Assembly: GCA_027039485.1 (NCBI GenBank)
Contig: JALWDZ010000026.1
Location: forward strand, 1,093-65,092
DNA from: Candidatus Shapirobacteria bacterium
GTDB taxonomy: Bacteria; Patescibacteriota; Microgenomatia; UBA12405; UBA6130
DNA length: 64,000 nucleotides
Direction: 5' to 3'
Shown here: piece by piece, positions 33,480 through 62,602 of the stretch
Position numbering within the stretch: position 1 is the stretch's first letter
How the letters are laid out: each line of letters begins with the position of its first letter
The notes under the pieces: model-generated
Database searches by the model: none
The model's input: only the letters and a program-made list of their open reading frames with translations
Told to the model about the DNA's origin: nothing
Made by a program: the position numbers and the translations under genes

Positions 33480-33930
33480 ATTCTAATTACCAAAATCCTA
33501 ATCCGCCAGCTGGCGGACTAAACAAATTCAAATGACCAAAATTCAAATGCTCAAAAACATTGAAACTGTGTCATTCTGAGCGTTAGCGAAGCCCCAGGAC
33601 GTTCCGCCAGCTGGCAGAGTCGGGGTAAAAATCTAGCGAAGCGCATTAATCCCACACCTGACTAACTCTCATGCGCTCGCTCCGCTCGCTAGATCTTTAC
33701 CCCTACCGAAGGTGGATTTATTCCACCGAAGGGGGGCTTCGTCGCTTCGCTCCTCAGGATGACAAGGGGAGATGTCTTTTGTTTTGGTCATTTGATCATT
33801 AGGTAATTTGGTTATTGTTTAGGATTTGGGTCATTAGGATTTAGGATTTTGCTCAACCTAGTTCCTAGCTCCATTTGAACTTTTCACTTTCCCCTTCTTT
33901 CTCACTTTTCACTTTTCACTTAAACTTTTC
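33478..33930. repeat. nested-palindrome MITE/REPIN-like element, longest copy, core present as an inverted duplication
   Basis: Arms aaattctaattaccaaaatcctaatc.../...ggatttgggtcattaggatttaggatttt. Internal 230-nt imperfect hairpin built from two inverted copies of gtcatYctgag...gaagcccc...ggggtaaaRatctagcga. 3' cctag/cactttt tract. Confidence 0.8.
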
Positions 33931-35037
33931 ATATAGCTCTTCCACTTTTTCTTTGAATTCCCGGCGGAAGCGGGCCTCGTCAAACTGTTCTGCTTGTCGG
34001 CGGCAGGCTGCCGGTTGGTAATGCCACTTTCGGAAACGCCGCAAAGTTTTTACCAAAACCTCAACCGTCGCCGGCCCAAAAAACAGGCCTGTTTTCCCGG
34101 CAACCACCGTTTCCCGCGCCCCTCCCCCATCATAGGCAATAACCGGCCGGCCGCTGGCCTGGGCTTCTAAACTCACCAAGCCAAAGTCTTCCTCCTGGGG
34201 CATGATGAGTGCCTGTGCCTGCCGATAAAGCTGCTTTAATTGGCTTTCGCTTACCTTGCCCCAGAATTTAATATTTTTCTTGGCCTTCTTCATTAATTTT
34301 TTTTGCGCCCGCCCTTCGCCGACAATCCACAACGGCCAACCCAGGCGGTTAAAAGCTTCAACTGCCAGTTCAACTCGCTTGTACTCCACTAAACGGCTCA
34401 CTACCAAAAAGGGGGCATCCTTGTCAGCTGGTTTTGGGGCCATCTTGAAACGGCGATAATTAATGCCCGGATAAACAACTTCACTCGGCCGCTGATAATA
34501 ATGCCAAACCCGTTCGGCTACTGTTTTCGAAATTGCCAAAATAGCGTCCGGCCGCTGGCCATAAAGCCAGTCATCCTGCCTCAAGCCTGCCAGCCAGGGA
34601 AAAAGCCGCCGCCAAGGAGTTAAATCAGGGCGCCAAAGATAGCGCGGCGGTGTCAAACAGTAATGGAGATGGAAAGTATCTGGCGGGGTGATGATTGCTT
34701 TAGCGGGCCCTGAGCTTAGGGAAATGACCAAATCAAAACTTCGAAAGGAAAAACTTTCAAAGGCATAACCCAAAAGGGGATAATACCAATAAACATGCCT
34801 TTTTGCCGCCGGGAATTTTTGCAAAAAACTAGTTTCCACCAGCCGGTGGCCCAAGAAATTTGCCTTTTCCCGATCATAAACTGCAGTAAAAATCCTTGCC
34901 TCTGGCCAAATTTTTAATAAGCTCAAAATCACCCGCTCGGCACCCCCCCAACGGTTAAGCCAGTCGTAAACCAAAGCGACCCTCACCGGAGCACCTCCCG
35001 ATAAAGACCTGCTATTCCCCGGGCCATTTTTTGCCAA
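33916..35037 (-). CDS. glycosyltransferase family 1
   Basis: LEAQASGRPVIAYDGGGARETV E-x7-E motif. Confidence 0.7.
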   Translation of the reverse strand: MAKNGPGNSRSLSGGAPVRVALVYDWLNRWGGAERVILSLLKIWPEARIFTAVYDREKANFLGHRLVETSFLQKFPAAKRHVYWYYPLLGYAFESFSFRSFDLVISLSSGPAKAIITPPDTFHLHYCLTPPRYLWRPDLTPWRRLFPWLAGLRQDDWLYGQRPDAILAISKTVAERVWHYYQRPSEVVYPGINYRRFKMAPKPADKDAPFLVVSRLVEYKRVELAVEAFNRLGWPLWIVGEGRAQKKLMKKAKKNIKFWGKVSESQLKQLYRQAQALIMPQEEDFGLVSLEAQASGRPVIAYDGGGARETVVAGKTGLFFGPATVEVLVKTLRRFRKWHYQPAACRRQAEQFDEARFRREFKEKVEELYEKFK

Positions 35038-36140
35038 CTGTAGCGTTTAGCCCACCGAAGGCCCAGCCGACGGTACTTTTGTCGTTGCTGTTCATTCAAA
35101 ATTACTTCCACTTGATGCCGCAATTCTGATGGGGAGTTGGGGTCAAAATAAAGGGCAGCCGGTCCCAAAGTTTCCGGAAGGGCCCCAGCTCGAGCGGCAA
35201 TCACCGGACAGCCACGGGCCATTGCCTCTAGCCCCGGCAAGCCAAACCCTTCTAAGCGACTAGGGAATACCAAGGCTAAAGCCTGGCGGTACAATTCTGC
35301 CAAAACGTTGTCTTCTACAAAGCCTACCAGGAGCACCTTTTTGGCCACGCCCATTCTTTGGGCTTCTTGCCAAAAACGGTCCCGAAAGACGCTTCGCGCC
35401 GCCACTACCACCAATTGGGGAGCCGCCGGCCATTCTTGCAACATTTTTAAAAGCAAAGTCGCATTCTTGTGAGGATAAAGGCTGCCAACATAGAGTAAAA
35501 ACGGCTTTTGGATGCCGTCTGGCAATTTTCCAGCTTTTCCTTTCGAAAGAATGTCAGGATCCACTCCTTCGGGGATTACCTCAATCCTGCGAACACATTG
35601 ATAATGGCGCCGCAAATCTTGGGCTGTCCACCGGCTAGGGGTAATTATTGCCTTGGCGCGGCAGACTGCCTGGCGAAAAACAAGCCGGTAACCCCAACGC
35701 TTTAGGCGATAACCCAAAAAATTGCGGGTCGTAGCCGCCTTGCCAGAAGAGTGATGCTTAATAAGGTCATGAACCGTAACTACAAAGGGCGCTGGCAAAA
35801 ATAAGGGAACATTAAAATGAAGAAAATGAACCAAGCTGGGCCGGAGGCGCCGAAGAAAAAGGGGCACTTGCCACTGTTCTCGCCAAGAGTAATGGCTGGC
35901 TGGCAAGGGATAAAAAGAATAGAAATTTTTGGTTATTTTTTTTAGATGAGGAATATCGTCTGGCTGGGCCAAAACTCCGTAACGAAACTGCCGGCTAGCC
36001 ACCTCGGGCAAAAAACGCAAAAAATTCAAGCTATAGCGCCCCAAACCAGCATGTTTAAGGTTGGCCAGCCGGCCGTCGACAATAATCAATGGCTTCATCG
36101 TTGTTTCACCCGCCAAACTCGGTATTTTTCCAATAACCAC
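34983..36140 (-). CDS. glycosyltransferase family 1
   Basis: LEAMARGCPVIAARAGALPETLG E-x7-E motif. Confidence 0.7.
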   Translation of the reverse strand: MVIGKIPSLAGETTMKPLIIVDGRLANLKHAGLGRYSLNFLRFLPEVASRQFRYGVLAQPDDIPHLKKITKNFYSFYPLPASHYSWREQWQVPLFLRRLRPSLVHFLHFNVPLFLPAPFVVTVHDLIKHHSSGKAATTRNFLGYRLKRWGYRLVFRQAVCRAKAIITPSRWTAQDLRRHYQCVRRIEVIPEGVDPDILSKGKAGKLPDGIQKPFLLYVGSLYPHKNATLLLKMLQEWPAAPQLVVVAARSVFRDRFWQEAQRMGVAKKVLLVGFVEDNVLAELYRQALALVFPSRLEGFGLPGLEAMARGCPVIAARAGALPETLGPAALYFDPNSPSELRHQVEVILNEQQRQKYRRLGLRWAKRYSWQKMARGIAGLYREVLR

Positions 36141-37096
36141 CAGGCAACAACCATCAGCCAGCTAACCCAGCGCGGATAACGGCTTTGGTAATGCTTGCGG
36201 TAGAAAATGCGCATAGCTGCTACCGAGGCCCGGGCTACTTTTACTCGACCCGCTGACGATGTCTTCGCCAAGCGGCGGCTATGTTTTTTGAGCCCTGAGG
36301 CTACCCCCCGATAATGGATAATTTTGACTTGGGGCAAAAAGACTACCGGCCAATGGTGGTGATAAAGCTGGTAACAAAATTCAATATCCTCACCGTAAAA
36401 GAAATAATCTTCATCCCACCAACCAATTGCTTCACCAGCTTGACGGCGGACGAGAAGGAAAGCTCCGCTCGCCGCTTCTATTTGGTGGGGCCGACGGCTT
36501 TTTAGAAGCCAACCTAGATGGTAACCGGCAAACCAGTGGCTATAAGGAAATAGCCGCTCTAGACCACTAAAATGGCAAAACGCTCGCCAGGGAGTGGGGA
36601 AACCCCGGTGGCAGGCGTCGTCAAGACGGCCATTGGCTAATTCCAACCGCGGTGTTACCGCTCCCACTCGGGGATGGGTTATTAAATAATGCCAAGCAGT
36701 CCACAAAGTTCTCACTGGCACCACCGTATCAGGATTCAAGAAGAGAACGGTTTTCCCTCGGGCTAGCTGCACGCCAACATTATTGCCCGCTGCAAAGCCC
36801 CGGTTTTCTTCTAACGGCAAATACTTTATATCTAGCCTAGGCCCTGCTATTCGCCAGCCTTTTTTACCCTGCCAAGCAAAGCGCCGGGCACCCCGTTCCC
36901 GAAAATATTTTACTAACCGCTTCTTAACCGGCAGCGGCGAGTTGTTGTCAACAATAATAATTTCCGCCGGACGGATATCGGCTTTTAATCTTGGTGATTT
37001 TCCCGAAAAATCCACTAAACTAGCTAAAGAAGTGAACAAAAATTGATCAGCATTATAGTGAAGAATGACAATGGATAACCTTTTTTGTTCGTTCAT
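36095..37096 (-). CDS. glycosyltransferase family 2
   Basis: LSIVILHYN...IIVDNNSP, DxD/ED motif (YGEDIEFCYQL). Confidence 0.7.
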   Translation of the reverse strand: MNEQKRLSIVILHYNADQFLFTSLASLVDFSGKSPRLKADIRPAEIIIVDNNSPLPVKKRLVKYFRERGARRFAWQGKKGWRIAGPRLDIKYLPLEENRGFAAGNNVGVQLARGKTVLFLNPDTVVPVRTLWTAWHYLITHPRVGAVTPRLELANGRLDDACHRGFPTPWRAFCHFSGLERLFPYSHWFAGYHLGWLLKSRRPHQIEAASGAFLLVRRQAGEAIGWWDEDYFFYGEDIEFCYQLYHHHWPVVFLPQVKIIHYRGVASGLKKHSRRLAKTSSAGRVKVARASVAAMRIFYRKHYQSRYPRWVSWLMVVAWWLLEKYRVWRVKQR

Positions 37097-38307
37097 TGGG
37101 ATAAATCCCGATAGATCCGGTAAAGTGCTCGGGCACTTTTAGACCAGGTGTAATATTTTAGTATCAACCGCCGCCCGGCCTGGCCAATCCTCCTTTGCTG
37201 TTCCTTATTGCGCAAAAGTTTTACTGCCAGATCAATAATTTCCTGGTCATTTTTGCCCACCAAAACATCGCGTCCCCATTTGGCCCGGATGCCTTCAATA
37301 CCCTCAGGAGTAGTCACTATCGGCAACCCTAAAGACATGGCTTCGAAGAACTTGGTCCGGCTTCCCCCGCCGCTAGCCATCGGCGCCAAAAGCAACCAAC
37401 TGCGACGGTACGTTTGGCTTACATCTTCCACCTCTCCGGCCCAAACATCTTTCTGCCCCGGTAAGAAACCTTTTCGGTAAAGAAAATCGCGAGCATACTT
37501 ACCGGCTACTAAGAGGCGAGCCTCGGGCACCGCTTGTTTCACCCGCGGCCAAATATCCAGCAGCAATTTCCTGGCCCCTTCTTTGTTTTGCAGCCACTTA
37601 AAATTAGCTACTCCAAAAAGCACCGTTGGCTGGCGATACTTAGGCAATGGCTTTAACTTGAGAAAGCGCTCATTTACCCCGTTAGGCACAATATCCACCG
37701 CCCGCCGGCTTAGTTTCTCCATAATCTTCTGGTCTTCTTCAGAAACGGCAGCCAAACGGTTAGCCCGCCGCCAATAATGTACCTCCCAAAACTTCAATTT
37801 GGCAACATCAAAATAAAACGGTAATTTTAATGGCCAGCGCCACCACGGTAAAGAAGCAACATAATGTTGGTAAACAGCAAACTCAATTGTTTGATCCACC
37901 AGCAAAACCGGCGTCTTAGTTTTGGGAATATTAGGCATCAGGTAAAAGCATTCCACGTGGATCAAATCATATTTTTCCCTTTGCAATTCCTGGCGCAAAG
38001 CCTGCTTTAAAGCCGGGGAAAAATAATTGGCCACCAAAAAAGGATAGGGGCTAAAGCCGGTAAAAAGAATTTTGCGCCACTGCCAGGTTTTTCCCCGCGA
38101 AAACGTCCGCACCCGGCGGCATAATTTGTTTAATTCTTGGATATTTTGCCCCGTTTGGTCAGGCAAAAGAAAACTAAAAAGGGTGATGTCCACATCCTTG
38201 GCCAAATGTTTTAAGAGATAGAAAGACCGGGTTTGCCCTCCCGAAAACGGCGGGTAAGGCAAATACGGGGTTATCATTAAAACCTTCAACTTTTTCCTTT
38301 TTGGCAT
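37093..38307 (-). CDS. glycosyltransferase family 1
   Basis: FEAMSLGLPIVTTPEGIEGI motif, GT-B architecture. Confidence 0.65.
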   Translation of the reverse strand: MPKRKKLKVLMITPYLPYPPFSGGQTRSFYLLKHLAKDVDITLFSFLLPDQTGQNIQELNKLCRRVRTFSRGKTWQWRKILFTGFSPYPFLVANYFSPALKQALRQELQREKYDLIHVECFYLMPNIPKTKTPVLLVDQTIEFAVYQHYVASLPWWRWPLKLPFYFDVAKLKFWEVHYWRRANRLAAVSEEDQKIMEKLSRRAVDIVPNGVNERFLKLKPLPKYRQPTVLFGVANFKWLQNKEGARKLLLDIWPRVKQAVPEARLLVAGKYARDFLYRKGFLPGQKDVWAGEVEDVSQTYRRSWLLLAPMASGGGSRTKFFEAMSLGLPIVTTPEGIEGIRAKWGRDVLVGKNDQEIIDLAVKLLRNKEQQRRIGQAGRRLILKYYTWSKSARALYRIYRDLSQ

Positions 38308-39746
38308 TGGCGGAGATCAATAATAACCCAACTTTTGGTTTGCTTTACTACCCGGCAACGTTTCATTAACTGTCGCGTTAAGCTGTCAAAACTGACCGAG
38401 ACATAATGGGTTGCCCCTCGCTTAATCAGTTTGTCTACCGGCTCAGGCACCGCCGGCCAGCCGGGACGGTTTACTTGGTAGAGGAAAGCAGAATCGTTGT
38501 TATAAGGGGCAATAACTTTGGCATCTTTTGGCAAAAGTTTGTCAGCTGCCTGCCCCGCCTTGACAATAGCCCAATTGTTAATATGCCAATAACCTTGGGT
38601 CTCATACCAGCCAATCGCCAGCATCATCACTAATAAGCTAATTACGATACCGCCATTCCAAAGGAAGCGCCATTTAGTTTTTGCCTGGCGCCACCAGTAC
38701 CAGGCCCCCTGGCTGGTAAAAATAACTACCAAAGGCACAAAAGGCAATTGGTAATAATCATGGGTCACATTGCCGGTAGCAAAGTAGAAAAGAAAAACCA
38801 AAAGGCCAAAGAGCCAGCTAAAATAAAAAAGCCATTCTTCTCTTTTCTTAGGCGCCAAGAGACCGGTAATAAAAAGGGCTAAGCCGCCCCCACCAAGCAT
38901 AATTTTCGTCAGCCGTTCGTAAAATAGCCAGCGGAAAAATGCCGGCCGGAAACGAATGTGGGTCGAGTTCACCAGCCAATCAGTGCCAAACTGCCCCTCG
39001 GGATAATGGTTAATATGCCAGCGCCAGAGAAGATAGGGCCCCAATGAAACAAGCGCCAAAACTATAATCTGCCAGCGGCGGCGCCAAATTTCTTTCACCG
39101 GCAACAAAAGAAGGAGGCCAACTACAGCTGCTCCAAGAACAATCCCGTAAGGCTTAGTTAAAATCGTCAAAGCCAAAAAGATAGCGCCGGCGAGAAGTTG
39201 CCCCCAAGAGCCGCGCCGCCGCCAATAGCTTAAAAATGCCAGCGCCGTCACCCCGCAAAAGACATGCAAGGGGTCGGGCATAATAACCCGGCCATAATAC
39301 ACATTGTAAGGCATTGTTGCCCAAAGAAAAGCCGCTAAAAGAGCTACTCCCCGCCCCGAATAAAAACTTACCAGCCAATAAAGGCTAAAAACCGTCAGTG
39401 AAGAAAAGAAAATCGAAACCAGCCGGGCCGCGGCCAAATTAACGCCCCAATGACGATAAAGCGGATAAACCAAAATATTATAGAGGGGGAATTCGGCAAA
39501 AAAGTAGCGGTGAACATTTTTTGGGCCATAACTATTAAGGGCCCAGAAAGAGCCAAATTGGGGATAAAAGGGATGAAATCCTTCCTTAATAAAATTACGC
39601 GTTACCGCGGCGGTGTCAGCCTGGCGCCAAGAATGCCAGTCAGCCAACGGCCAGTGAAGATGATAAGTGCGCAAAAGGAAGGCCAAGCTAAAAATGGCAA
39701 TTAGCAGGAGAATATGGCCCCATTTAGCGCTTAGTTTTCTTTTCAT
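38286..39746 (-). CDS. GT39/ArnT-like polytopic membrane glycosyltransferase (PMT_2-like)
   Basis: About 12 TM helices, N-terminal loop with DxxxW/R (ADWHSWRQADT)-like motif, C-terminal soluble domain. Confidence 0.55.
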   Translation of the reverse strand: MKRKLSAKWGHILLLIAIFSLAFLLRTYHLHWPLADWHSWRQADTAAVTRNFIKEGFHPFYPQFGSFWALNSYGPKNVHRYFFAEFPLYNILVYPLYRHWGVNLAAARLVSIFFSSLTVFSLYWLVSFYSGRGVALLAAFLWATMPYNVYYGRVIMPDPLHVFCGVTALAFLSYWRRRGSWGQLLAGAIFLALTILTKPYGIVLGAAVVGLLLLLPVKEIWRRRWQIIVLALVSLGPYLLWRWHINHYPEGQFGTDWLVNSTHIRFRPAFFRWLFYERLTKIMLGGGGLALFITGLLAPKKREEWLFYFSWLFGLLVFLFYFATGNVTHDYYQLPFVPLVVIFTSQGAWYWWRQAKTKWRFLWNGGIVISLLVMMLAIGWYETQGYWHINNWAIVKAGQAADKLLPKDAKVIAPYNNDSAFLYQVNRPGWPAVPEPVDKLIKRGATHYVSVSFDSLTRQLMKRCRVVKQTKSWVIIDLRQCQKGKS

Positions 39747-41163
39747 AGCCCTGACTTAGTTTATACCCTAAGCCCATTAACAGCCAAAAAGAGAAAGCGT
39801 CCTTTGAAGCCTCGAAAACATCAATAAAAAAGGCATTCGCTAAAAACCCCAATAAGCTGCCAATAAAACCGGCCAGAAAAATTTTCGTTCGGCGGTCGCT
39901 TTCCCGCCAAGCCTGCCAAAAACTATTTAAAAGATGTCCCGGAATGAGGAGAAAAGCTAGAAAACCCACTAAACCAGTCTCGCCCAAGAGGCGGAGATAA
40001 TCACAGTCAGTCGCTAGCCCCAATGATGAATAGCCTAGTCCCCAGAGAGGATTTTTTGCCCAAGCCCGCCAAGCCCGGGGCCATTCGACCCGAAAACGAA
40101 TTAATGACGACCGAGCAGTCGCCGCTTTTAGTTCTTCCGGCTTAGGCCAGGTACGCACCTCCCGGATAATTGTCCGTCTCTGCTGGGCTGACTGGCCCGC
40201 CTCAGAAACTACATTGCCGGTCGCGGGCACTTGGGTTGGCGAAACAACTACCTTTTTAGCAGCTACCGGCGGTTTTTTTGGAGCCCGATGATAGCGGGCC
40301 GACGCCCTTTGCCAAAAAGCCACCACCGGCGAAACTGTAGAAACCAGGCGGGTGTTTAGCTCCCGCGAGTGCAACCCAAAGCCCAAACTAAAAGCCAGTA
40401 AAAGAAGCCAAAGAAGCCAACGACGCTGGATAACTAGGGTAATCGTCATCGCCAATAGATAAGCAACAAAAGAAATGCGCGAAGCAGTCCAAACCAAAAG
40501 CTGAAAACCGGCCAAAAAGATAAAAATTGCCACCAATCGCCAAAACCATTTTTCCGTCAATGCCAGAGCTAAAACCAAAGGCAAAACCAAAACTAGCCAG
40601 GCGGCTAAATCATAATGGCCGGCAAAAGTTGAACTGATGCGGACCCATTTATCAAGATGCAAAATAAGGCCACTGGAAAATTCAGCATTCATAGTCGAAA
40701 CCACCGGCAAACCAAAATATTTCTGGCCAATGCCATAAGCAAAAACCAAAAAAACTACCAATAAAAGAACTCGCAAAAAGCGCTCGATGCTCCTCTTATC
40801 TTCTCCGGCATCCAAAGCCAAAAAGAAAACTGCCATGTATTCTATCCGCCGCAGCCAATGCAAAAAAGCCAGATGGATGTTAATAAAATCGGTAATCCAA
40901 AAAGCGCTAAGATTAGCCAGAAAACCGGCTAACCAGAAAAGAAAAAAATATTTCCGCAGCGGCTGTCCCAATTTCCACCGGCGCCGGGCAATAATTTCCA
41001 ATAACCAAAATCCCAAAACGCCGGCAACCAACAAGTCCATCACCCGAATGGCAACATAAGTGTGCTTTACCCCCAGCAAAGGAAACTTAGGATAAAGAGG
41101 GACAGCAAAAAGCAAAACTAAAAAACCAATGCGCGCCCAGCGTGACCCTTTTAAAATTTTCAT
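39724..41163 (-). CDS. O-antigen ligase / Wzy_C-domain membrane protein (candidate O-oligosaccharyltransferase or polymerase)
   Basis: About 10-12 TM helices with a large extracytoplasmic loop, topology typical of WaaL/PglL/Wzy_C. Confidence 0.5.
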   Translation of the reverse strand: MKILKGSRWARIGFLVLLFAVPLYPKFPLLGVKHTYVAIRVMDLLVAGVLGFWLLEIIARRRWKLGQPLRKYFFLFWLAGFLANLSAFWITDFINIHLAFLHWLRRIEYMAVFFLALDAGEDKRSIERFLRVLLLVVFLVFAYGIGQKYFGLPVVSTMNAEFSSGLILHLDKWVRISSTFAGHYDLAAWLVLVLPLVLALALTEKWFWRLVAIFIFLAGFQLLVWTASRISFVAYLLAMTITLVIQRRWLLWLLLLAFSLGFGLHSRELNTRLVSTVSPVVAFWQRASARYHRAPKKPPVAAKKVVVSPTQVPATGNVVSEAGQSAQQRRTIIREVRTWPKPEELKAATARSSLIRFRVEWPRAWRAWAKNPLWGLGYSSLGLATDCDYLRLLGETGLVGFLAFLLIPGHLLNSFWQAWRESDRRTKIFLAGFIGSLLGFLANAFFIDVFEASKDAFSFWLLMGLGYKLSQGYEKKTKR

Positions 41164-42134: not shown

Positions 42135-42723
42135 CCACCTGTCCTTTGGTTAAACGATAACTCCAAAGCATTTCTTGCCAAGCTAATTTAACCAAAAAAT
42201 AGGCCATTATCCAGCCAGCCCAAAAGAGTACCAAGCGGGCCCAAACCGGAGCCACCCACCAACGAAAACTAACTTTAGCACGCCAAACTTTACCGCCAGC
42301 AATAATTTTATTTTTCACCCGTTTACTCGGCGGGGTAAAAACATCCCGTTGCCAATCAAAACCGTTAACGAAAAGAGATTCCCTAAATGGATGAACAAAT
42401 TCTTCTAAATAATAACTTCTTTTAGTATCCTGCCAAATTTTTCTAGCGTCTTCTGGCGGATGATTCAGCATGTATTGGGGAAAAGGCAAACAAATGTTCA
42501 AAAAATGTGAACAGCGAAAAGCATGCTTACTAAAATTATGAACATCTTGGCGGTTTTTGTCGGTAAAATAGGCACTTACGCGCTGCAACTGCACCGTGTC
42601 GCCAGGCTCATTAGATTTTAAGCTTTGCGGTAGGGCCGGCGGCGGCAGAGTTGGCCCTGGCAAAAGGAGATAAATAGTTATAAATAATCCCACTAGCCAA
42701 TATAATTTGCCAAGCCATTTCAT
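42127..42723 (-). CDS. hypothetical membrane protein
   Basis: N- and C-terminal TM helices, no family recognised. Confidence 0.3.
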
Positions 42724-47247: not shown

Positions 47248-48479
47248 TTTGCTGGCGGTTGCCTTTGGCTAAGAAACCGATAACTCTTTTCGCCTTCTTC
47301 TCGAAGCCAGCGTGGCTGGTTTAGTCGCTTCATCAATGTTGCCACCAAACCGTTCAAAGAATGAACTCGCTCGCCCCCGCCCAGCTCCATCACTTCCCGC
47401 AGAACCGGCAAATCGTTAACAATAATCGGTTTCTTACGAGCCCAAGCTTCCATCACTACCAAACTCAATGATTCTGCCCGCGACGGATTGACCAAAACCC
47501 AAGCCCGGTCTAGAAGCTCTACTTTCTTTTTAGCTGACACCGGCCCTAAAATTTGCACATCCCGGCGAATTTTTACCGGTAAATGGCGATAAATTTCATC
47601 TATGACCGGCGAGTAGAGTGTCCGCGGCCCGGCAATCACCAACTTAGCTTCTCTGGCATTTTGAGACTGGCCTTTTTCTTTTAGCTGGCGAAAGGCTTCT
47701 AGTAACCAGTCTATTTGCTTGTGGGCTGCCTGACTTCCCAAAAACAAAATTAGCGGTGGCGAGGTAAACTTGGCCTTTTGTTTTTTGGTAAGCATAATTT
47801 CCCGGGCCAAATTGGCCGTCAAGACCATGATTTTCGCTTTACCAACACCAAGCCTCTGATACTGCTTCTTCTCATAATTGCTAAGGGCAACAATTTTATC
47901 TGCCTTCTGTAAGAGCCAACGGAAGCGTTTCTTCTGAAACCCGGCCTCTTGGCTGTGCCAACAGGGCACCAAGACAAAGCGGCTGCCCCATAAACGGGCC
48001 AAAAACCAGCCATAAAACGGGGCTAAAGTGGGGAAGGGTCCGCTAATCACTACCGCAAAATGCTGGCGCGGCCACCACTTAAGCCAAAGAAAAACCGGCC
48101 CCACCAACCGCCGCAAAATTGGCCGCCCCCAGCGCCAAGTCCAAAACCGGCGCACTTTTATTCCCCGAAAATAAGTATCGCGATAGCGCGGTTTCCACGG
48201 CTGCAAAAATTCATCGCTAGAACGGGCATCACTGGCCCAAATTTCCACCTGATGGCCTTGTTGTTTCAACTGCTGCGCCAGCCAAGACAAAAGGAACGAA
48301 CCGCCATCGCCTTGGGGGCGAAAAACATGGCTGAAGACCAAAATTTTCATTGCAAATGGCGCAATTGGGTCTGAAAAAATTGCTTGATTAAGCCATAATC
48401 GCCCCGGCGGGGCTGTAAAATCCAACTGCCATAATAAGGGTCTATTCCCGTCTCTAAAATCGCAGCATCGCCTTGCCAA
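47220..48479 (-). CDS. glycosyltransferase family 1
   Basis: MEAWARKKPIIVNDLPVLREVM motif. Confidence 0.65.
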   Translation of the reverse strand: MARRCCDFRDGNRPLLWQLDFTAPPGRLWLNQAIFSDPIAPFAMKILVFSHVFRPQGDGGSFLLSWLAQQLKQQGHQVEIWASDARSSDEFLQPWKPRYRDTYFRGIKVRRFWTWRWGRPILRRLVGPVFLWLKWWPRQHFAVVISGPFPTLAPFYGWFLARLWGSRFVLVPCWHSQEAGFQKKRFRWLLQKADKIVALSNYEKKQYQRLGVGKAKIMVLTANLAREIMLTKKQKAKFTSPPLILFLGSQAAHKQIDWLLEAFRQLKEKGQSQNAREAKLVIAGPRTLYSPVIDEIYRHLPVKIRRDVQILGPVSAKKKVELLDRAWVLVNPSRAESLSLVVMEAWARKKPIIVNDLPVLREVMELGGGERVHSLNGLVATLMKRLNQPRWLREEGEKSYRFLSQRQPPANWWLKLLGQ

Positions 48480-49411
48480 AGCAGCTCTTGGCGCAATGGC
48501 TGTTGTTTAATTGCCCGTCGCAGCCAGCGCCATTGGGCAATAGTTGCTAAAGTAACCCGCGGGCGAATGAGGATATTTTTTTGCACGAAATTATACATTT
48601 GTCCCAAGAAATAGGGTATTTGCCACCAAGGGCGGGCTTTAATAATTGTTTTCTCCAACGCCAAAAGAACTTCCTGCTGCCGCCTTTCCCGCGCCAAATC
48701 ATTGCCTTCTTGGGGATTACTGCTTTTACGGGAACGCATATATTCCAAAGCTCGCTGGCCGCTAAAATGGTGCCAACCCTTTTGGAAACTTACCGTCCGG
48801 ACACCATGGCTGCCATCATCGCGGGGAAAATGGCTATCCCGAAAGCTCCTTTCCACATAAATATCTATTCCCCCCAAAAAATCAATCAAATCGCGCACAT
48901 TAGCCATCGTTAACAGGGCAACTTGGTCGATCTTCTGACCGGTTAGCCGCTCCACTGTCGTTTTCAACAAGCCAAAGGGATGTTGGGGATCGCGCCGGCG
49001 GCCATAATAATAAAGGGCGTTTATTTTTGTCCGCTGGTCCTCCAGCCATAAATCGCGGGGAAGAGAAAAAAGCAAGCTTTTACCCGTCTTGGTATTAACG
49101 GTGACCAAAAGAATGGTATCGGTCAAAAGGGTCGGGTTATCGGGCCGCTGGTCAAGGCCTAGCAACAAAAACGAATGGTATTGGTTTCTGTCAGGATGCT
49201 GCCAGCCCCATTTTAAATCATGATAGAGCGCCGCCGGCTTTAGATGTGCTCCCCGGGCAAACTGCCAACCGGCCCAAAAGGAAAGGAAAACAGCAAAAAA
49301 AATAACTACCCCAACAACCAATAAACTAAAAATGGCCAACTTTTTAGCAATTTGAACCAGAAAAGGGATTACTTTTTGGCCAACCATGATAAGGGTTTTC
49401 TTGTTCGCCAT
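48347..49411 (-). CDS. LytR-CpsA-Psr (LCP) family protein
   Basis: N-terminal TM then LGLDQRPDNPTLLTDTILLVTVN...SLPRDLW, typical LCP core. Confidence 0.65.
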   Translation of the reverse strand: MANKKTLIMVGQKVIPFLVQIAKKLAIFSLLVVGVVIFFAVFLSFWAGWQFARGAHLKPAALYHDLKWGWQHPDRNQYHSFLLLGLDQRPDNPTLLTDTILLVTVNTKTGKSLLFSLPRDLWLEDQRTKINALYYYGRRRDPQHPFGLLKTTVERLTGQKIDQVALLTMANVRDLIDFLGGIDIYVERSFRDSHFPRDDGSHGVRTVSFQKGWHHFSGQRALEYMRSRKSSNPQEGNDLARERRQQEVLLALEKTIIKARPWWQIPYFLGQMYNFVQKNILIRPRVTLATIAQWRWLRRAIKQQPLRQELLWQGDAAILETGIDPYYGSWILQPRRGDYGLIKQFFQTQLRHLQ

Positions 49412-50538
49412 ATCGTGGGTAATTCTAACAAATTCTTAGCTAACCACCAAAACGTTGCCGGCCATAATTTCAGCGGCGTAGTTTTCAAAAGATAACTAAA
49501 ATTGCGCCCCCGCTCTAAGAGGATCGGCCACCAATAACGGCGCCAGGTTCGAGAAGGATAGTTCTTGATTAGCAGCCACCACCAATTGCGCACCGTCATC
49601 CGCTGGCGCAAATTTCCCATCTTCCGGCTCGTGGCTCCACCCTGGTGATAAGCTACCAACTGGGGCAAAAAAAGCATCTGCCAGCCCCTTTCCCGCAACC
49701 GCAGAGCCAGATCGACATCTTCTAAATAAGCAAAAAAGCGTTCATCAAAACCGCCAGCAGCCAAAAAAGCGTCCCGGCGATAAACTACCGCCGCCCCATT
49801 AAGGCCATCCGCCAAATGCGGTTTTTTTAGCCAGGCTTTAAATTTTTTTCGTGCCTCCGACCATTTCCAACCATTGGCAATATTTTCCGCCCGACCCGGC
49901 AAAAAATACCGTAACCCTAAACTTTCAACCCGGCGGCCAGTTCGATCTAGCACTATTCCGCCAAAGGCGGCCACCCGCTGTTGCCGGTATTGCCATAGGA
50001 TTAGCTCTAAATTCGCCAGCCAATTATCAGCCAGGCGCACATCATCATTCAAGACCAAAAGATAATCGCCCCGGGCCGCCTTTGCCCCCTGATTCACCGC
50101 TCTCGCAAAACCAAGGTTTGTTTTATTAAAAATAGTTTTGATTACTATGCCAGGGGGTATGGAGAAGACGCTATCATCATGTTGGTTGTTCTCACCTTCA
50201 TTGTTGTTCCATGATTTTCTTCTCTCTTTTTTGTTTGGAATTTGAGGTTTGTAATTTTGATATTGTTTGTAATTTGCCTGCCTGCGCAGGCAGGGTGCTT
50301 GGTGCTTGGAATTTAATTCCTTGAGGAATTCTTTACTGCCATCATGAGAATTGTTATCAATGATGATTATTTCTAGGTTTTGTATTTGGTCATTTAAATT
50401 TTGATATTGTTTGTAATTTGCCTGCCTGCGCAGGCAGGGGATTTGGGATTTGGAATTTACAGCCCTAAAAAGGCTGTTGAGGCATTCTTGGAGAAGGTCT
50501 CGTCCCTGGAAATGGGGAATAATAACCGAAAGTTTCAT
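49369..50538 (-). CDS. glycosyltransferase family 2 carrying two in-frame repeat-derived insertions
   Basis: GT2 N-terminus (LSVIIPHF...CLNSL) and core (EIIIIDNNSHDGS, NLGFARAVNQG, ED motif). Two low-complexity inserts encode SKSQIPCLRRQANYKQYQN... Confidence 0.7.
   Translation of the reverse strand: MKLSVIIPHFQGRDLLQECLNSLFRAVNSKSQIPCLRRQANYKQYQNLNDQIQNLEIIIIDNNSHDGSKEFLKELNSKHQAPCLRRQANYKQYQNYKPQIPNKKERRKSWNNNEGENNQHDDSVFSIPPGIVIKTIFNKTNLGFARAVNQGAKAARGDYLLVLNDDVRLADNWLANLELILWQYRQQRVAAFGGIVLDRTGRRVESLGLRYFLPGRAENIANGWKWSEARKKFKAWLKKPHLADGLNGAAVVYRRDAFLAAGGFDERFFAYLEDVDLALRLRERGWQMLFLPQLVAYHQGGATSRKMGNLRQRMTVRNWWWLLIKNYPSRTWRRYWWPILLERGRNFSYLLKTTPLKLWPATFWWLAKNLLELPTIWRTRKPLSWLAKK
50140..50460. 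repeat. repeat-element-derived segment inside the GT2 gene (two copies of the palindrome CCTGCCTGCGCAGGCAGG plus ggatttgg k-mers)
   Basis: tttgatattgtttgtaatttgcctgcctgcgcaggcagg occurs twice (about 50268 and 50414). Near-identical to 53624..53900. Confidence 0.75.
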
Positions 50539-51596
50539 TGGCCGACCTTAAACTCAACGACATCGCCGTCTTTCATCAGATATTCCCTGCCTTCGCTGCG
50601 GACTTTCCCAGCCGCCCGAGCTTTTTCCCAACCCCCTAATTCCACAAAGGTTGGATAATCAACGACATCGGCCCGGATAAATTTTTTGGCAAAATCAGAA
50701 TGAATTGTCCCGGCCGCCGTTACTGCTGTTGCCCCCTGTCTAATCGTCCAGGCCCGGACCTCTTTCCGGCCGGCTGTCAAAAAAGAAATCAAGTTAAGCT
50801 TTTGATAAGCCAAGGCGACCAGCCGATCCAAGCCGGATGTTGCAAAACCTAGCTCTTGCAAATATGCCCGCCGTTCCGCCTCCGAAAAAGCTCCCAATTC
50901 TGCTTCAACCCGCGCCGAAAGGGGTAGAACTGGCTGCCAGCGAAAACCGGCTAAAATTTGCTCCCGATCTTTTAACTGCTCCTCACTCAAGTTGGCAACA
51001 TAAATCACCGGTTTGGCGGTCAGAAGAAACAGGCGCTGGCTCGCCTGGCGCTCCTCGGGCGTTAAGCCAACCTCACGCGCCGGTTGGCCTTGGTCCAAAC
51101 CCTGGCGCAATTTTTCCACCGCCCGCCAAAAAATTTTCTCCTCGTCGCTAGCTCCCGGCCGCGGCGGTTTTTGCTTTTCCAAAGTCTGCAAATCAGCCAA
51201 AAGCAACTCGTTTTCAATCACGGCAATATCATCAGCCGGGTTCTTTCCCGTCCGCGGTATCTGCTTATCATCAAAAAAGCGCACCACCTCAACAATCAAC
51301 GAAACCTCCCGAATATGGGCCAAAAATTGGTTTCCCAATCCCTCACCATGGGCCGCCCCCTTCACTAGGCCGGCAATGTCGACAAACTCCACCACCGCTG
51401 GCACTATTTTTTCCGTTTTGACAATTGCCGCCAGTTTTTCCAGGCGCGGATCGGGCACCGGCACAACTCCTGTATTAGGCTCAATCGTGCAAAAAGGATA
51501 GGGGGCCACACCAGCTACCTGCTTTTTTAAAAGGGCATTAAAAAGAGTAGATTTGCCAACATTGGGCAACCCGACAATCCCCACGCTTAATTTCAT
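50535..51596 (-). CDS. ychF: ribosome-binding ATPase YchF (Obg-family GTPase)
   Basis: MKLSVGIVGLPNVGKSTLFNAL G1 motif, C-terminal TGS domain. Confidence 0.9.
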   Translation of the reverse strand: MKLSVGIVGLPNVGKSTLFNALLKKQVAGVAPYPFCTIEPNTGVVPVPDPRLEKLAAIVKTEKIVPAVVEFVDIAGLVKGAAHGEGLGNQFLAHIREVSLIVEVVRFFDDKQIPRTGKNPADDIAVIENELLLADLQTLEKQKPPRPGASDEEKIFWRAVEKLRQGLDQGQPAREVGLTPEERQASQRLFLLTAKPVIYVANLSEEQLKDREQILAGFRWQPVLPLSARVEAELGAFSEAERRAYLQELGFATSGLDRLVALAYQKLNLISFLTAGRKEVRAWTIRQGATAVTAAGTIHSDFAKKFIRADVVDYPTFVELGGWEKARAAGKVRSEGREYLMKDGDVVEFKVGQ

Positions 51597-51632
51597 TTTC
51601 CAATTTTACCACCCCCGTTTACCCTGTTATAA

Positions 51633-52949
51633 TTGCCTATGCTTGCCAATATTTTCATCAATTTCTTGGCCCAAGGTTATCTTTTCCTCATTTCGTTTTT
51701 TACCCTGCCAGCCATCCTCCACTATCTCGGCAAGGAACAATTCGGCTTTTTAGCCTTAGCCGCCGCTCTCCTCAATTACGCCACTACTTTCGACTTTGGC
51801 TTTGGGGCCGCCCTTACCCAACGGGTAGCTTACCTCCACTCCCAAAACCGCCGCCAGCAACTAAAAACCACCATCCAAACTGGCTTTTTAACCTACACTC
51901 TCCTAGCCGCCGCCATTATCATTTCCCTTGATCTTTTCGCCCAGCCTATCCTTCACCTCTTTAACCTTTCACCCCAACTTTTTGGCCAGGCCCAGAAAAT
52001 CATGCCCCTCATCGCCCTTAACATCGGCCTTTACTTCCCCACCATTTTTGCCGCCAGCATTTTCCAGGCCGAAAACCATTTCTGGCGCTATAATTTGCGC
52101 ACTTTTATCGTTGGCACTGCCAATACCCTCGGCGTTTTTTTCCTCGCTAGCCGCCACTTTCCCCTCATTGCCATTTTCCAACTCCAAACCGCCGCCTTAC
52201 TTCTTACTTTAGCCCTCGATTTCTGGCTCCTCCGCTCCTACCTGGCTTATCCCCACTTTTCCCGCCGCCATTTTCTTCAACTCGGCCGCTTCGCCCTTTT
52301 TAAATTTCTGAGCAACACCGCCGGCCAAATCAGCACCCAATTCCCCAAATTTTTCCTTGCTTCCCTGGTCAATGTCGCCAGCGTCAGTTATTTCACCGTC
52401 CCTTTTTCTCTCATCCAAAAACTAGGGGTCATCCTTTCCCAAATCTACATCGTTTTCTTCCCCAAGATAGCCCACCTCAACGGCCGCCAGCAATCGGCAA
52501 AAATCCGCCGCCTTTTCCAACGGGGCCAACTTCTGGTCGCCATCATTACCATCCCTGCTATTGCCTTGGGCTTCTGGCTTGGGCCACTTTTCCTCAACTG
52601 GTGGCTGAAAGATCCCCAATTTGTCCGGCAAATCTTGCCCGTCTTTAATATTCTTCTCGTTTACTTTCTGGTCCACGCTTTCACGGCCATTCCGGTGGCT
52701 ATTCTTGAAGGCATTAACCAACCCCAACTGCCGGCTCTTTTAGCTTGGATTAATGCCGCTATCACCATCGGCGGCGGTTATTTCCTTATCAAACGCCTAG
52801 CCGCTCCCGGCGCTGCTCTCACTCTTCTCGGTTACACCCTTGTCACCGGACCTTCGGTTATCCTTCTCGCCTGGCGCAGCTTAAAAATCCCAAAGCCAGC
52901 GCCAAAGCCGCCACTGGACCTTAGCTCTAGTCAACCGCTCCCGCAATAA
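51633..52949 (+). CDS. oligosaccharide flippase (Wzx/MOP superfamily) polysaccharide biosynthesis protein
   Basis: 438 aa, about 12-14 TM, typical Wzx organisation. Confidence 0.6.
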   Translation: MPMLANIFINFLAQGYLFLISFFTLPAILHYLGKEQFGFLALAAALLNYATTFDFGFGAALTQRVAYLHSQNRRQQLKTTIQTGFLTYTLLAAAIIISLDLFAQPILHLFNLSPQLFGQAQKIMPLIALNIGLYFPTIFAASIFQAENHFWRYNLRTFIVGTANTLGVFFLASRHFPLIAIFQLQTAALLLTLALDFWLLRSYLAYPHFSRRHFLQLGRFALFKFLSNTAGQISTQFPKFFLASLVNVASVSYFTVPFSLIQKLGVILSQIYIVFFPKIAHLNGRQQSAKIRRLFQRGQLLVAIITIPAIALGFWLGPLFLNWWLKDPQFVRQILPVFNILLVYFLVHAFTAIPVAILEGINQPQLPALLAWINAAITIGGGYFLIKRLAAPGAALTLLGYTLVTGPSVILLAWRSLKIPKPAPKPPLDLSSSQPLPQ

Positions 52950-53987
52950 TTGGGCAAAAGCATTGCCCAAAAAAGTAAAACTTAAAACAAGACGATAAAG
53001 CCAAAGCGGGTAATGGTGCTTTCGTAAAAATAGGAAAAGCGAGGCAAAATAGCGCCGGTAAAATTGCCACCGCTCTTTCATTTTCCAATTTTTCCAACTC
53101 CCACCGCCAAAGTGAATTATTTCCGCCGCTGGCACCACCACCAACTTACCCAATCCTAATTTTTTAACTCGGTACGACCAGTCAACATCTTCAAAAAAGA
53201 AAAAATAATCCTCGTCAAGGCCTTTTGTTTTTTGCCAAACTGTCCGCCGAGCCAGCAAAGCTGCCCCCGGCAATTGTTCAACTGGCGTTGGCATTTTGCT
53301 CACCTGGCTAAAGACCAGCCACTTTAGCGGCGTGGCTGTCACCAGCCAGCGGCCGGCCAGGCTATGGTAAAACGCCATTTGCCAAAGGTTAGGAAAACGC
53401 ATATAGTAGCGCTGCTGAAAACTGCCGTCGGGGTTTAATAACCTAGGAGACACGGCGGCCACATCGCCATGTTTTTCTAAATAGCCCACCATCTTCTCTA
53501 AGGCTCCCTTCTTAACAATAGTATCTGAATTAAGAAGAAGGATATATTTGCCTCTGGCAATTCTTATTCCTTGGTTGTTAGCCTTTGCAAAACCAAGGTT
53601 TGTTTTATTAAAGATAGTTTTAATGGCTATGCCCTGGGGTATAGAAAAAATACCACTGTGTCGGTTATTTTCACTTTCACTGTCATTCTGAGATTTTCTT
53701 CTTTTCTTTTTGTTTAGAATTTGAGATTTGGGATTTGGAATTTGGGATTTGGAATTTAATTCCTTGAGGAATTCTTTACTGCCATCATGAGAATTATTAT
53801 CAATGATGATTATTTCCATGTTTTGAATTTGGTCATTTAAATTTTGATATTGTTTGTAATTTCCCTGCCTGCGCAGGCAGGGAATTTGGGATTTGGAATT
53901 TACAGCCTCAAAAAGGCTGTTGAGGCATTGTTGGAGGAGATCCTTAGTGTTGTAATTGACAATGATAATGGAGAGGAGAGGACTCAT
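52881..53987 (-). CDS. glycosyltransferase family 2 carrying in-frame repeat-derived insertions (paralog of 49369..50538)
   Basis: LSIIIVNYNTKDLLQQCLNSL, EIIIIDNNSHDGS, NLGFAKANNQG, DEDYFFFFEDVDW. Inserts encode SKSQIPCLRRQGNYKQYQN... and SQIPNPKSQILNKKKRRKS... Confidence 0.7.
   Translation of the reverse strand: MSPLLSIIIVNYNTKDLLQQCLNSLFEAVNSKSQIPCLRRQGNYKQYQNLNDQIQNMEIIIIDNNSHDGSKEFLKELNSKSQIPNPKSQILNKKKRRKSQNDSESENNRHSGIFSIPQGIAIKTIFNKTNLGFAKANNQGIRIARGKYILLLNSDTIVKKGALEKMVGYLEKHGDVAAVSPRLLNPDGSFQQRYYMRFPNLWQMAFYHSLAGRWLVTATPLKWLVFSQVSKMPTPVEQLPGAALLARRTVWQKTKGLDEDYFFFFEDVDWSYRVKKLGLGKLVVVPAAEIIHFGGGSWKNWKMKERWQFYRRYFASLFLFLRKHHYPLWLYRLVLSFTFLGNAFAQLLRERLTRAKVQWRLWRWLWDF
53624..53900. 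repeat. repeat-element-derived segment inside the GT2 gene (palindrome CCTGCCTGCGCAGGCAGG, tandem gggatttggaattt)
   Basis: Near-identical at nucleotide level to the 50140..50460 segment (e.g. gaatttaattccttgaggaattctttactgccatcatgagaatt). Confidence 0.75.
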
Positions 53988-55231
53988 TTTTGCCGCAAAA
54001 TTCGGTAGACAAACAAATTATTAATCACTAGCCCATACGCCTCGCCAACGACCATCGCCCAGGCGGCTCCGACAACCCCCCAATGGGCAATCAAATACCA
54101 ACCACCAACAAGCATCACCAAAAAATTGGAAAAAGCCCAAGGCAAAAACTGCTTTACCCGGTCTGAATTATGAATTATATTGCCCGGCAAAGCGTTGACG
54201 AAAAAGAGAATAAGCGCCCCACCTAAAATGCGGAAAAGGGGCACCGCCGGGAGATAGCGGGGACCATAAAGAATCAAAACCAGCAGGCGGCCAGCAAAAA
54301 TAAAAACCGCGCTTAAAGGAAGAGCCAAAAGCAAAAGGCCCAACCAAAGGCGCAAATATAATCTTGGCAAATCACGGTGGCGCTGACGCAAAAGGCGCGC
54401 CGAGAGTGGGAAAAAAGCCACCGCTACCCCTTGGGGAATAACAATGCCCGCCTCGACAAATTTCCCCGCTGCCCCATAAATGCCCGCCCAATAATTTCCC
54501 AAAAGGCGGCCAACCAAAATAATTGGCAGGCGCAAATAAAAAACAGCCAGCACTAAAAGAACGGCAAAAACCCAAGCTTGGCTTAATGCTCGGCGGGCAA
54601 ATTGCCAATCTAAACGCCAAGACCAATGGGGCAAACGGTAAAACAACAGTAAAAAGCCAAAAAGAAAAAGGTAGGCCAACAAATAACCGGCCAAAACTAC
54701 CGCCAGAGGTTGGTGCCACCAAGCTGCCAGGACGGAAAACAAGCCCGAGCCAAAAGACATAGCCAAGGTTGCCCCAGCGGCGAACCAGGGGCGTTCCCGG
54801 CCATTTTCTACCGCTCCGATAATATTGAGCAAATTGGCCGGGGCCAGGGCCGCTTCGAAAACAAACAGCAGCCAAAGCCCCCGCCCGCGTACACCGATAA
54901 GCCAGGCAGCTAGCAAAGTTATAACCACGGTGGCCACGGCCAGCCACAAACGCAACGGCAACAGCTTGGCCAAAAAATCCGGCGCCTCCCGAGGATGGCG
55001 GGCAACCCAGCGCAACGCCAGGCGCTCCAAGCCAAAGTCAGCTAAGGGGTAAAAATTGTAGCCAAAGCTAATCGTCCACAACAAAAGGCCAAAATCCGGC
55101 ACCGCCAGTAATCTTGCCAGCAATAGGAAAAAAAGAAAACCTAAAGCTCGAGCAGCGATTTGCGCCCCAGAAAGGACGGCGCTGTTTAACAAGAGCTTTT
55201 TCATTCCTGCGAAAATAATTGGTCTTGCCAC
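53984..55231 (-). CDS. polysaccharide-biosynthesis polytopic membrane protein (Wzx/MATE-like flippase)
   Basis: 415 aa, about 12 TM, N-terminal [16 protein letters not shown] typical of MOP flippases. Confidence 0.5.
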
Positions 55232-62594: not shown

Positions 62595-62602
62595 CTAATT
62601 CG

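Follow-up and report, generated by a model that had tools for sequence, protein, structure and literature searches.

A lineage-wide surface-glycan locus with a WaaL-fold membrane enzyme in Microgenomates/Shapirobacteria-like bacteria

A block of genes at positions 33916–55231 of the 64,000-nucleotide stretch analysed here (contig JALWDZ010000026.1; hereafter, the window) probably encodes a Wzx/Wzy-type pathway for a cell-surface or wall glycopolymer, anchored by a LytR-CpsA-Psr (LCP) protein, of a lineage within the Candidate Phyla Radiation (CPR); a functional tie to the neighboring type IV pilus operon is unlikely. This reading follows from the cast of proteins encoded in the block, namely a Bac_transf phosphoglycosyl transferase (in the relatives), glycosyltransferases (GT), an acetyltransferase, MOP flippases, a WaaL-fold membrane protein (39724–41163), a GT-C enzyme and the LCP protein. 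The kind of system is known; what is new is a CPR-specific WaaL-fold family with an aspartate in place of the canonical histidine, the recurrent fusion of its members to a GT-C module, and a fixed, lineage-wide locus. In the literature, no publication on this WaaL-fold family in CPR was found.

Conserved gene order and the predicted pathway

Six-frame open reading frames (ORFs) combined with Pfam and NCBIfam scans bear out the dense, nearly all minus-strand surface-glycan locus proposed in the earlier note, with several corrections. The number of GT genes, previously given as about 12 of the GT1/GT2 types, is 10 according to Pfam, comprising six GT4 and four GT2; the two GT-C enzymes within the block (both PMT_2) and the third one outside it, the two Wzx-like flippases, one of them the sole plus-strand gene of the locus, the LCP protein and the left-handed beta-helix (LbH) acetyltransferase were all recovered as described. 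Two genes had been missed, the housekeeping GTPase gene ychF and a gene for a conserved 198-aa membrane protein that has no Pfam match. The assignment of the LCP protein is secure in NCBIfam as well (TIGR00350, 82 bits, cut-off 62.3), and its gene is conserved at the head of the block in the relatives. For the initiating phosphoglycosyl transferase, no Pfam domain of the Bac_transf or WecA type is present on the scanned ORFs of the window, and a tblastn search with the Bac_transf proteins of the relatives as queries gives zero matches there.

The Wzy_C-like protein encoded at 39724–41163 has more than 2,200 relatives, and all those with a named source come from Patescibacteria, Shapirobacteria or Microgenomates. 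A scan of one genome per species places a relative in at least 581 genomes, mostly of Shapiro-, Woese-, Daviesbacteria or other Microgenomates. The host is an ultra-small, Microgenomates/Shapirobacteria-like CPR bacterium. Gene order was compared on contigs whose Wzy_C ortholog is 88%, 56%, 50%, about 46% and about 40% identical to that of the window, and in all five relatives it reads (flippase, GT2, YchF), LCP, GT4, GT-C2, GT4(s), LbH, a 156–198-aa protein, GT2, Wzy_C, GT-C1, GT4, GT2, GT4(s), (ManC), Bac_transf, DUF4012, RecO and an aminoacyl-tRNA synthetase. The terminal synthetase contains tRNA-synt_2b and HGTP_anticodon throughout, with a faint GlyRS mark in locus L090; DUF4012 is enriched in CPR and is found in a Bifidobacterium capsular/exopolysaccharide cluster (PMC6744442). 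Among 80 Wzy_C loci from species-representative genomes, 34 are well flanked (at least 9 kb on each side), and these contain, on the same strand and at fixed offsets, the genes for LbH (34 loci), the 198-aa protein (33), Bac_transf (33, at a median of about 8.3 kb downstream of the Wzy_C gene), GT2 (32), DUF4012 (30) and GT-C1 (26). The GT2 counted here is the ortholog of 41160–42134, located directly upstream of the Wzy_C gene with a median offset of −907 nt. Thus, the block is a vertically conserved synteny unit of the Microgenomates/Shapirobacteria lineage. The suggestion that the locus builds a wall glycopolymer is supported by this unit, in which Bac_transf of the relatives keeps company with the LCP protein, the MOP flippases and the WaaL-fold enzyme.

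The predicted pathway would start with the Bac_transf phosphoglycosyl transferase, which would form an undecaprenyl-diphosphate-linked sugar; given that its gene belongs to the block in the relatives and is missing from the window, it must be encoded elsewhere in the genome. The six GT4, the four GT2 and the LbH acetyltransferase would then build and decorate the oligosaccharide at the cytoplasmic face, and the MOP flippases would carry it across the membrane. At the outer face, the WaaL-fold protein, predicted to use conserved arginine residues for the diphosphate and an aspartate where WaaL has its catalytic histidine, would move the lipid-diphosphate-linked glycan, most probably onto the next repeat unit, that is, as a polymerase. 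Its translationally coupled partner GT-C1 would add or transfer a sugar from a lipid-linked donor, and the LCP protein would join the product to peptidoglycan. Whereas the genes, their synteny, the fold, the altered motifs, the fusions and the missing link to the pilus are observations, the enzymatic steps, the role as polymerase and the acceptor are inferred. The combination of a polymerase, a GT-C enzyme and an LCP protein in the production of one wall polysaccharide has a precedent in WpsH/WpsI/WpsJ/LcpA of Lactococcus lactis (PMC9574508).

The WaaL-fold protein and its GT-C partner

The Wzy_C profile (PF04932) matches 39724–41163 with 19.3 bits, under the gathering score of 31.7, but 46 of the 47 family members match it at E ≤ 0.1 (best E 9e-14), and the ortholog P0025, with 39.3 bits, exceeds the gathering score. 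The AlphaFold model (pLDDT 83, pTM 0.85) predicts a WaaL-type multi-helix membrane fold, and among solved structures the O-antigen ligase WaaL is clearly the closest to it (Foldseek E 2e-5). Hidden Markov model (HMM) searches of the protein and the family profile against all PDB sequences return no meaningful match, so that the link to WaaL comes from the fold comparison alone. No solved Wzy polymerase was among the matches of the PDB search, and the likeness to WaaL therefore cannot separate the possible roles. An alignment of 47 relatives reveals the invariant motifs V[IV]STMNxEF, TFAGHYDL, TASR(I/V)SF, (V)EWPRA, G(T/L)GYSS..LATD(N)DYLR.LGETG and FIDVFEASK; the family is unusually conserved, its motifs being broken by a variable loop, rich in Pro/Thr, for which the model predicts disorder.

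A histidine residue (H338 in WaaL, H349 in PglL, H286 in TfpM) is required in WaaL and in all four classes of protein O-oligosaccharyltransferases (O-OTases) (PMC3643930, PMC9829042). The corresponding position in the window protein is occupied by Asp385, and Asp is found in 261 of the 262 aligned family members. An HH global alignment, Pfam coordinates that agree within one residue and the identical spacing of glycines at +11 and +14 suggest that Asp385 is the counterpart of the catalytic histidine. The related SEDS polymerases use a catalytic Asp, which makes a carboxylate base in the WaaL fold plausible; an invariant histidine in another loop, His182, could in principle take over the catalytic role. 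Arg228 aligns with R215 of E. coli WaaL (hhalign against the single sequence, at a low probability of 3% that is not proof); of the 266 family members, 246 have R at this position and 14 have K.

In the window, the Wzy_C gene shares 23 nt with the GT-C1 gene downstream of it, and in many relatives the two are one gene. Among the best 150 cluster representatives from an all-against-all HMMER search, 42 have a length of 900–1270 aa. The C-terminal halves of two such proteins, P0247 and P0253, are clear GT-C1 orthologs (phmmer 1e-95 and 5e-85, respectively), and those of a cluster of 25 fusion proteins match the GT-C1 profile with an hhalign probability of 97.9% over 399 columns. A further cluster of 14 long fusion proteins was not accepted as GT-C fusions, with hhalign probabilities of only 6–28%; its member P0222 is a genuine ORF with a C-terminal half that has no GT-C assignment. 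The fusions in L089, L090 and L091 are genuine ORFs with the same syntenic surroundings, and those of L089 and L090 were confirmed on the DNA as Wzy_C::GT-C fusions. In L019 (8401–11316) and L020 (7761–10613), Wzy_C and GT-C1 share one reading frame and are split by nothing but a stop codon. The relatives thus form a graded series of genes overlapping out of frame, split by a stop codon in frame, and fully fused. The recurrent gene fusions are Rosetta-stone evidence that the WaaL-fold and GT-C modules are likely to act jointly on the outer face of the membrane. No report of a pairing or fusion of this kind (Wzy_C with PMT_2, polymerase-like with GT-C) was found in the literature.

All three GT-Cs of the window contain 8–10 hydrophobic segments and score above the PMT_2 gathering score, and GT-C1 (40.5 bits) and GT-C3 (29 bits) also exceed that of PMT (PF02366, 22.7). 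A bacterial protein O-mannosyltransferase of family GT39 would also call for a supply of polyprenyl-phosphate-mannose and for Ser/Thr-rich acceptors; a Ppm1-like synthase was not found in the window, where only one Pro/Thr-rich secreted protein was found. The four GT2s match only generic NCBIfam models of the exopolysaccharide type, and 41160–42134 is the only one with a C-terminal transmembrane (TM) segment; by these matches, none of them resembles a polyprenyl-phosphate-sugar synthase (GtrB/CsdA/GacI-like). The idea that the 198-aa protein is a Wzz-like co-polymerase or a GacJ-like activator found no support: its model is of high confidence and has no convincing structural neighbor.

Several points weigh against the wall glycopolymer reading. 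The window contains no initiating transferase, so the pathway as seen is incomplete, and the donor of the GT-Cs is unexplained because no GT2 resembles a known polyprenyl-phosphate-sugar synthase. No chain-length regulator (Wzz-type polysaccharide co-polymerase, or CpsC/D) was identified; the 198-aa protein has the two-TM topology of co-polymerases, yet no structural similarity to them. Ten GTs exceed the need of a typical repeat unit and would also fit a complex, non-repeating protein-linked glycan or two glycans. The equivalence of Asp385 and the histidine comes from a low-probability HH alignment, Pfam coordinates good to ±1 residue and motif spacing. Neither a sequence feature within the WaaL fold nor the fold itself sets Wzy polymerases apart from ligases or O-OTases. 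In rare cases, moreover, an LCP enzyme glycosylates a protein, as does LcpA of A. oris (PMC7831098).

The pilus junction and alternative roles of the WaaL-fold protein

Toward lower coordinates, a spacer of 436 nt lies between the last GT4 gene and a complete type IV pilus operon (pilB, pilT, pilC, a 218-aa pilin, prepilin peptidase, eight more pilin-like ORFs and pilM/N/O). None of the 34 well-flanked Wzy_C loci has PilB, PilT, PilC, PilD, PilM or pilin within 10 kb; reciprocally, markers of the glycan block are present in none of the 26 pilB loci with at least 8 kb upstream (out of 80 metagenome pilB loci). At the DNA level, blastn collinearity between the window and L004, an 83%-identical relative, extends to position 33874, 42 nt beyond the GT4 stop codon, after which L004 continues into Bac_transf and the window into pilB. 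The spacer holds copies (33435–33591 and 33775–33849) of a dispersed AT-rich intergenic repeat of about 75–150 nt (…TTTGGTCATTTGATCATT…TTAGGATTTGGGTCATTAGGATTTAGGATTT) that occupies four intergenic sites in the window, the others being 15630–15774, 19682–19961 and 56927–57078; in L004, a copy (17086–17267) lies in the GT4/Bac_transf spacer. Such a repeat could serve as a substrate for recombination or misassembly. The lack of adjacency in the relatives, together with collinearity that ends in a repeat-bearing spacer, suggests that the pilus adjacency is either a recent contig-specific rearrangement at the repeat or an assembly chimera, and under both options alike it would hold no functional information. 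The glycan locus is probably not functionally tied to the pilus operon, which happens to lie beside it here; the proposal of a pilin O-OTase, insofar as it was drawn from the proximity of pilB, loses that footing, the adjacency being peculiar to this contig.

That the junction is a chimeric join made by the assembler at the dispersed repeat, so that the two operons are not true neighbors, has a fairly low probability. It agrees with the presence of the repeat in the spacer, elsewhere in the window and in the L004 spacer, with the end of L004 collinearity within the spacer, with the absence of the adjacency among relatives from both the glycan and the pilB side, and with a search for the exact junction-spanning pattern that matched no other assembly in the one other collection searched. 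On the other hand, absence from one collection is weak evidence, composition does not shift sharply across the junction, the two operons share a strand and the length of DNA between them is plausible as a spacer, and the nearest relative found (88% Wzy_C identity) may predate a genuine rearrangement.

As a speculative and rather unlikely extension, the CPR WaaL-fold family, with its Asp for His and recurrent fusion to a PMT_2-type GT-C, would be an undescribed two-module machine for glycan transfer at the outer face. It may be a combined polymerase-ligase that builds the wall polymer and hands it over in one complex, or it may be an Asp-dependent class of protein O-OTase that decorates pili or surface proteins for attachment of the episymbiont to its host.

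There is a low probability that 39724–41163 is a protein O-OTase that would transfer a glycan en bloc to Ser/Thr of pilins, an S-layer protein or Pro/Thr linkers; with Asp instead of His, it would be a new, fifth kind of O-OTase. In the S-layer glycosylation loci of monoderms (WsaB, WsfB), O-OTase genes are located inside glycan clusters, which counts for this option, and ten GTs with an acetyltransferase fit a complex non-repeating glycan. However, neither PglL_A (PF15864) nor Wzy_C_2 (PF11846) matches any of the 47 family members at E ≤ 0.1, and the histidine that is essential in PglL, PglS, TfpO and TfpM is replaced by the near-invariant Asp. PglL_A is a marker made to tell PglL O-OTases from WaaL (PMC3643930). 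The superfamily and fold are nevertheless common to all known O-OTases (PMC9829042), and glycosylation of CPR pilins has been predicted, not demonstrated, in Saccharibacteria (PMC11623550). None of the O-OTase classes of PMC9829042 and PMC3643930 offers a parallel to the fusion with a GT-C, and the block, through its conserved LCP protein and Bac_transf, already has a way of reaching the wall.

The genomic position of the gene argues in the same direction: it is set between the GT2 and GT-C genes, neither adjoins a pilin gene nor is linked to the pilus in any relative, and is separated from the nearest pilin gene (28727–29383, 10.3 kb off) by four GT genes, GT-C1, pilB, pilT and pilC. TfpO and TfpM require a C-terminal Ser/Thr on the pilin (PMC9829042), and none of the nine pilin-like ORFs of the window has one (they end in Q, Q, P, Q, Q, P, Q, Q and I). 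In favor of the O-OTase, the 235-aa minor pilin encoded at 27319–28026 on the minus strand contains, at residues ~165–190, the Pro/Thr-rich stretch PTNTPVPTKMLTPTPVPTLP, the sole such case among the pilin-like ORFs. The earlier note held that the idea would fall if the enzyme were clearly a polymerase or WaaL and the pilins had no Ser/Thr/Pro-rich regions; this is half borne out, one minor pilin being Pro/Thr-rich and the sequence leaving the enzyme unclassifiable as a polymerase. Altogether, protein O-glycosylation by the locus is unsupported rather than excluded, given that in exceptional cases an LCP enzyme glycosylates a protein and that ten GTs is a large number for one repeat unit. The same minor pilin, the one strongly Pro/Thr-rich protein of the window, has a class III signal with an N-methylation motif and a Cys-rich C-terminal module with 12 Cys in the last 45 residues.

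Quite improbable is a true ligase, which would move a finished undecaprenyl-diphosphate-linked chain to a membrane glycolipid or to another wall polysaccharide; the GT-C, whether fused or adjacent, would build or prime this acceptor, and polymerization would be either absent or done otherwise. The closest solved structure is that of a ligase, WaaL, and Arg228 aligns with WaaL R215, but this likeness does not discriminate when the PDB search returns no solved Wzy polymerase, and the catalytic His of WaaL is not conserved. The absence of an identified co-polymerase and the tight coupling or fusion to GT-C, suggestive of two consecutive outer-face transfers, count for a ligase, and the L. lactis GT-C WpsJ joins two wall polymers (PMC9574508); against it, the window has no evident pathway for an acceptor glycolipid, and the LCP protein already covers the final attachment.

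Gene inventory and comparison with known systems

Features of the glycan block and its surroundings (window coordinates)
Feature	Position	Strand	Evidence
MOP/Wzx-type flippase (Polysacc_synt, Polysacc_synt_3)	53984..55231	-	Pfam; weak NCBIfam Wzx_EPS match
GT2, paralog of 49369-50538, with in-frame palindromic repeat insert	52881..53987	-	Pfam GT2 match in 2 stretches
Second MOP flippase (MatE / Polysacc_synt)	51633..52949	+	Pfam; 12 hydrophobic segments
YchF GTPase, housekeeping passenger	50535..51596	-	Pfam; position within block kept in L003, L007
GT2, two in-frame repeat inserts	49369..50538	-	Pfam, repeat search, alignment
LCP (LytR-CpsA-Psr) glycopolymer transferase (predicted), N-terminal TM anchor	48347..49411	-	Pfam LytR_cpsA_psr, 102.9 bits
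GT4	47220..48479	-	Pfam
GT-C2 (PMT_2), ~10 TM segments	45817..47247	-	Pfam, TM scan; ortholog in 21/34 loci
GT4	44502..45611	-	Pfam
GT4	43361..44509	-	Pfam, 148 bits
LbH O-acetyltransferase (predicted), WcaF-like	42720..43364	-	Pfam, NCBIfam; 34/34 well-flanked loci
Conserved bitopic membrane protein, 198 aa (TM, ~135-aa alpha/beta ectodomain, TM)	42127..42723	-	
GT2, one C-terminal TM	41160..42134	-	Pfam, TM scan
WaaL-fold (Wzy_C superfamily) membrane enzyme (predicted), CPR-specific family, Asp385 at canonical His position	39724..41163	-	
GT-C1 (PMT and PMT_2), 23-nt overlap with Wzy_C gene	38286..39746	-	Pfam; directly downstream in 26/34 loci
GT4, best NCBIfam match TIGR03087 (152 bits)	37093..38307	-	Pfam, NCBIfam
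GT2	36095..37096	-	Pfam
GT4	34983..36140	-	Pfam
GT4, final block gene in window	33916..35037	-	Pfam
Synteny breakpoint spacer, last GT4 to pilB, with dispersed intergenic repeat copies	33480..33915	.	blastn, repeat search
Third GT-C (GT-C3; PMT, PMT_2), outside block	59160..60623	+	Pfam; near 1/80 Wzy_C loci only

A flippase occupies the place equivalent to 53984–55231 in L007 and L090, in the order flippase-GT2-YchF-LCP. The genes that follow position 55231 are those for RuvB, RuvA, a CofD-like protein and RuvC; GT-C3 lies beyond them, and its tie to the glycan locus is uncertain. GT-C3 is convergent with a minus-strand gene (60598–61989) for a polytopic membrane protein, which weakly matches an IPT/TIG domain at its C-terminus (E 0.0018). 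Animal TMEM260 O-mannosylates IPT domains, and the GT-C2 ortholog of L007 has a weak TMEM260_N match on record; a link to the IPT/TIG neighbor of GT-C3 may be coincidence.

Between GT-C2 and the next GT4, the window and its relatives contain a basic ORF of 64–75 codons (45608–45835 on the minus strand of the window; 3936–4160 in L001, 6563–6775 in L003 and 6375–6569 in L007), which was rejected as part of the locus, its position being conserved and its copies having no detectable mutual sequence similarity. The two GT2 paralogs share a 201-nt stretch of 93% identity and carry in-frame palindromic repeat inserts (50232–50499 within 49369–50538 and 53742–53942 within 52881–53987) with the hairpin GCCTGCCTGCGCAGGCAGG. 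The residues that these inserts encode, for instance AVNSKSQIPCLRRQANYKQYQN, are missing from the L003 and L007 orthologs; the inserts resemble the in-frame palindromic elements of Rickettsia. Arrays of other palindromic repeats, 43–49 nt long (e.g., TATCGCTCGCGCCAGCGAGC and CGTCCCGCTTGCGGGAC), lie in 61598–64000 and flank a small IS200/Y1-transposase-like gene (61986–62594, Y1_Tnp 24.4 bits) in a REP/RAYT-like cluster; a 465-aa ORF running through the repeats (62603–64000) has no family match and may be spurious. At the other end of the window, 1285–1747 and 2874–3070 hold an ordinary set of tRNA genes, six tightly clustered on the plus strand (Val, Phe, Gly, Gly, Gln, Lys) and two tRNA-Leu genes on the minus strand.

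CPR/Patescibacteria account for a large share of bacterial diversity and live attached to other cells, and their surface chemistry is almost unknown. The present analysis defines a surface-glycan locus of fixed order with a characteristic enzyme pair across at least 581 species-level genomes and removes a tempting false lead, pilin glycosylation read from adjacency. Experiments could be directed at the enzyme with the Asp385 substitution, at the GT-C that partners it and at the 198-aa ectodomain protein. Should the Asp variant prove active, the WaaL/O-OTase fold would be able to work with a SEDS-type carboxylate base, with consequences for glycoengineering and for the mechanism across the superfamily.

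Compared with WaaL (Cupriavidus metallidurans, PDB 7TPG/7TPJ, and E. coli), the window protein is only ~15% identical and has no HMM-level match to any PDB chain; the CPR family has Asp385 in place of the essential His338, invariant motifs of its own (V[IV]STMNxEF, TFAGHYDL, VEWPRA, FIDVFEASK) and a disordered Pro/Thr-rich insert in the loop. A lipid A-core acceptor is not expected in a monoderm-like CPR host. Like PglL, PglS, TfpO and TfpM, the protein is predicted to be a Wzy_C superfamily membrane enzyme that uses undecaprenyl-diphosphate-linked glycans, and its size is near that of TfpO (PMC9829042); unlike them, it has neither PglL_A nor Wzy_C_2, and the conserved His is replaced. Whereas 21 of 31 pglL genes adjoin a pilin gene and tfpO and tfpM lie next to their own pilin genes (PMC3643930, PMC9829042), the window gene belongs to a polysaccharide locus and adjoins no pilin gene, and the window pilins do not end in the Ser/Thr seen with TfpO/TfpM.

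The cps locus of Streptococcus pneumoniae (CpsA LCP, CpsE Bac_transf, Wzx, Wzy) resembles the CPR block in uniting an initiator (in the CPR relatives), GTs, an acetyltransferase, a flippase, a Wzy-like protein and an LCP protein in one operon-like block. The CPR block differs in having DUF4012 in place of the CpsB/C/D tyrosine-kinase module, two or three GT-Cs and more GTs than usual, and, in the window, no initiator. The L. lactis machinery for the polysaccharide pellicle (PSP) and rhamnan comprises the co-polymerase WpsH, the polymerase WpsI, the GT-C WpsJ, the Wzx protein WpsG and LcpA (PMC9574508). Sequence homology between the two systems is not demonstrated, the CPR block has no rhamnan ABC-transporter arm, and its Bac_transf initiator implies a diphosphate-linked donor; the CPR two-TM protein has no Wzz-like fold, and many CPR genomes encode the polymerase-like module and the GT-C module as one protein. 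Both, however, are monoderm loci for a wall polysaccharide (predicted in CPR) with a Wzx flippase, a membrane polymerase (predicted in CPR), a two-TM accessory protein, a GT-C that acts on lipid-linked glycan outside the membrane (predicted in CPR) and an LCP protein (PMC9574508), and with its core cast of a two-TM protein, a GT2, a WaaL-fold enzyme and a GT-C, the CPR locus finds in L. lactis its closest described analogue.

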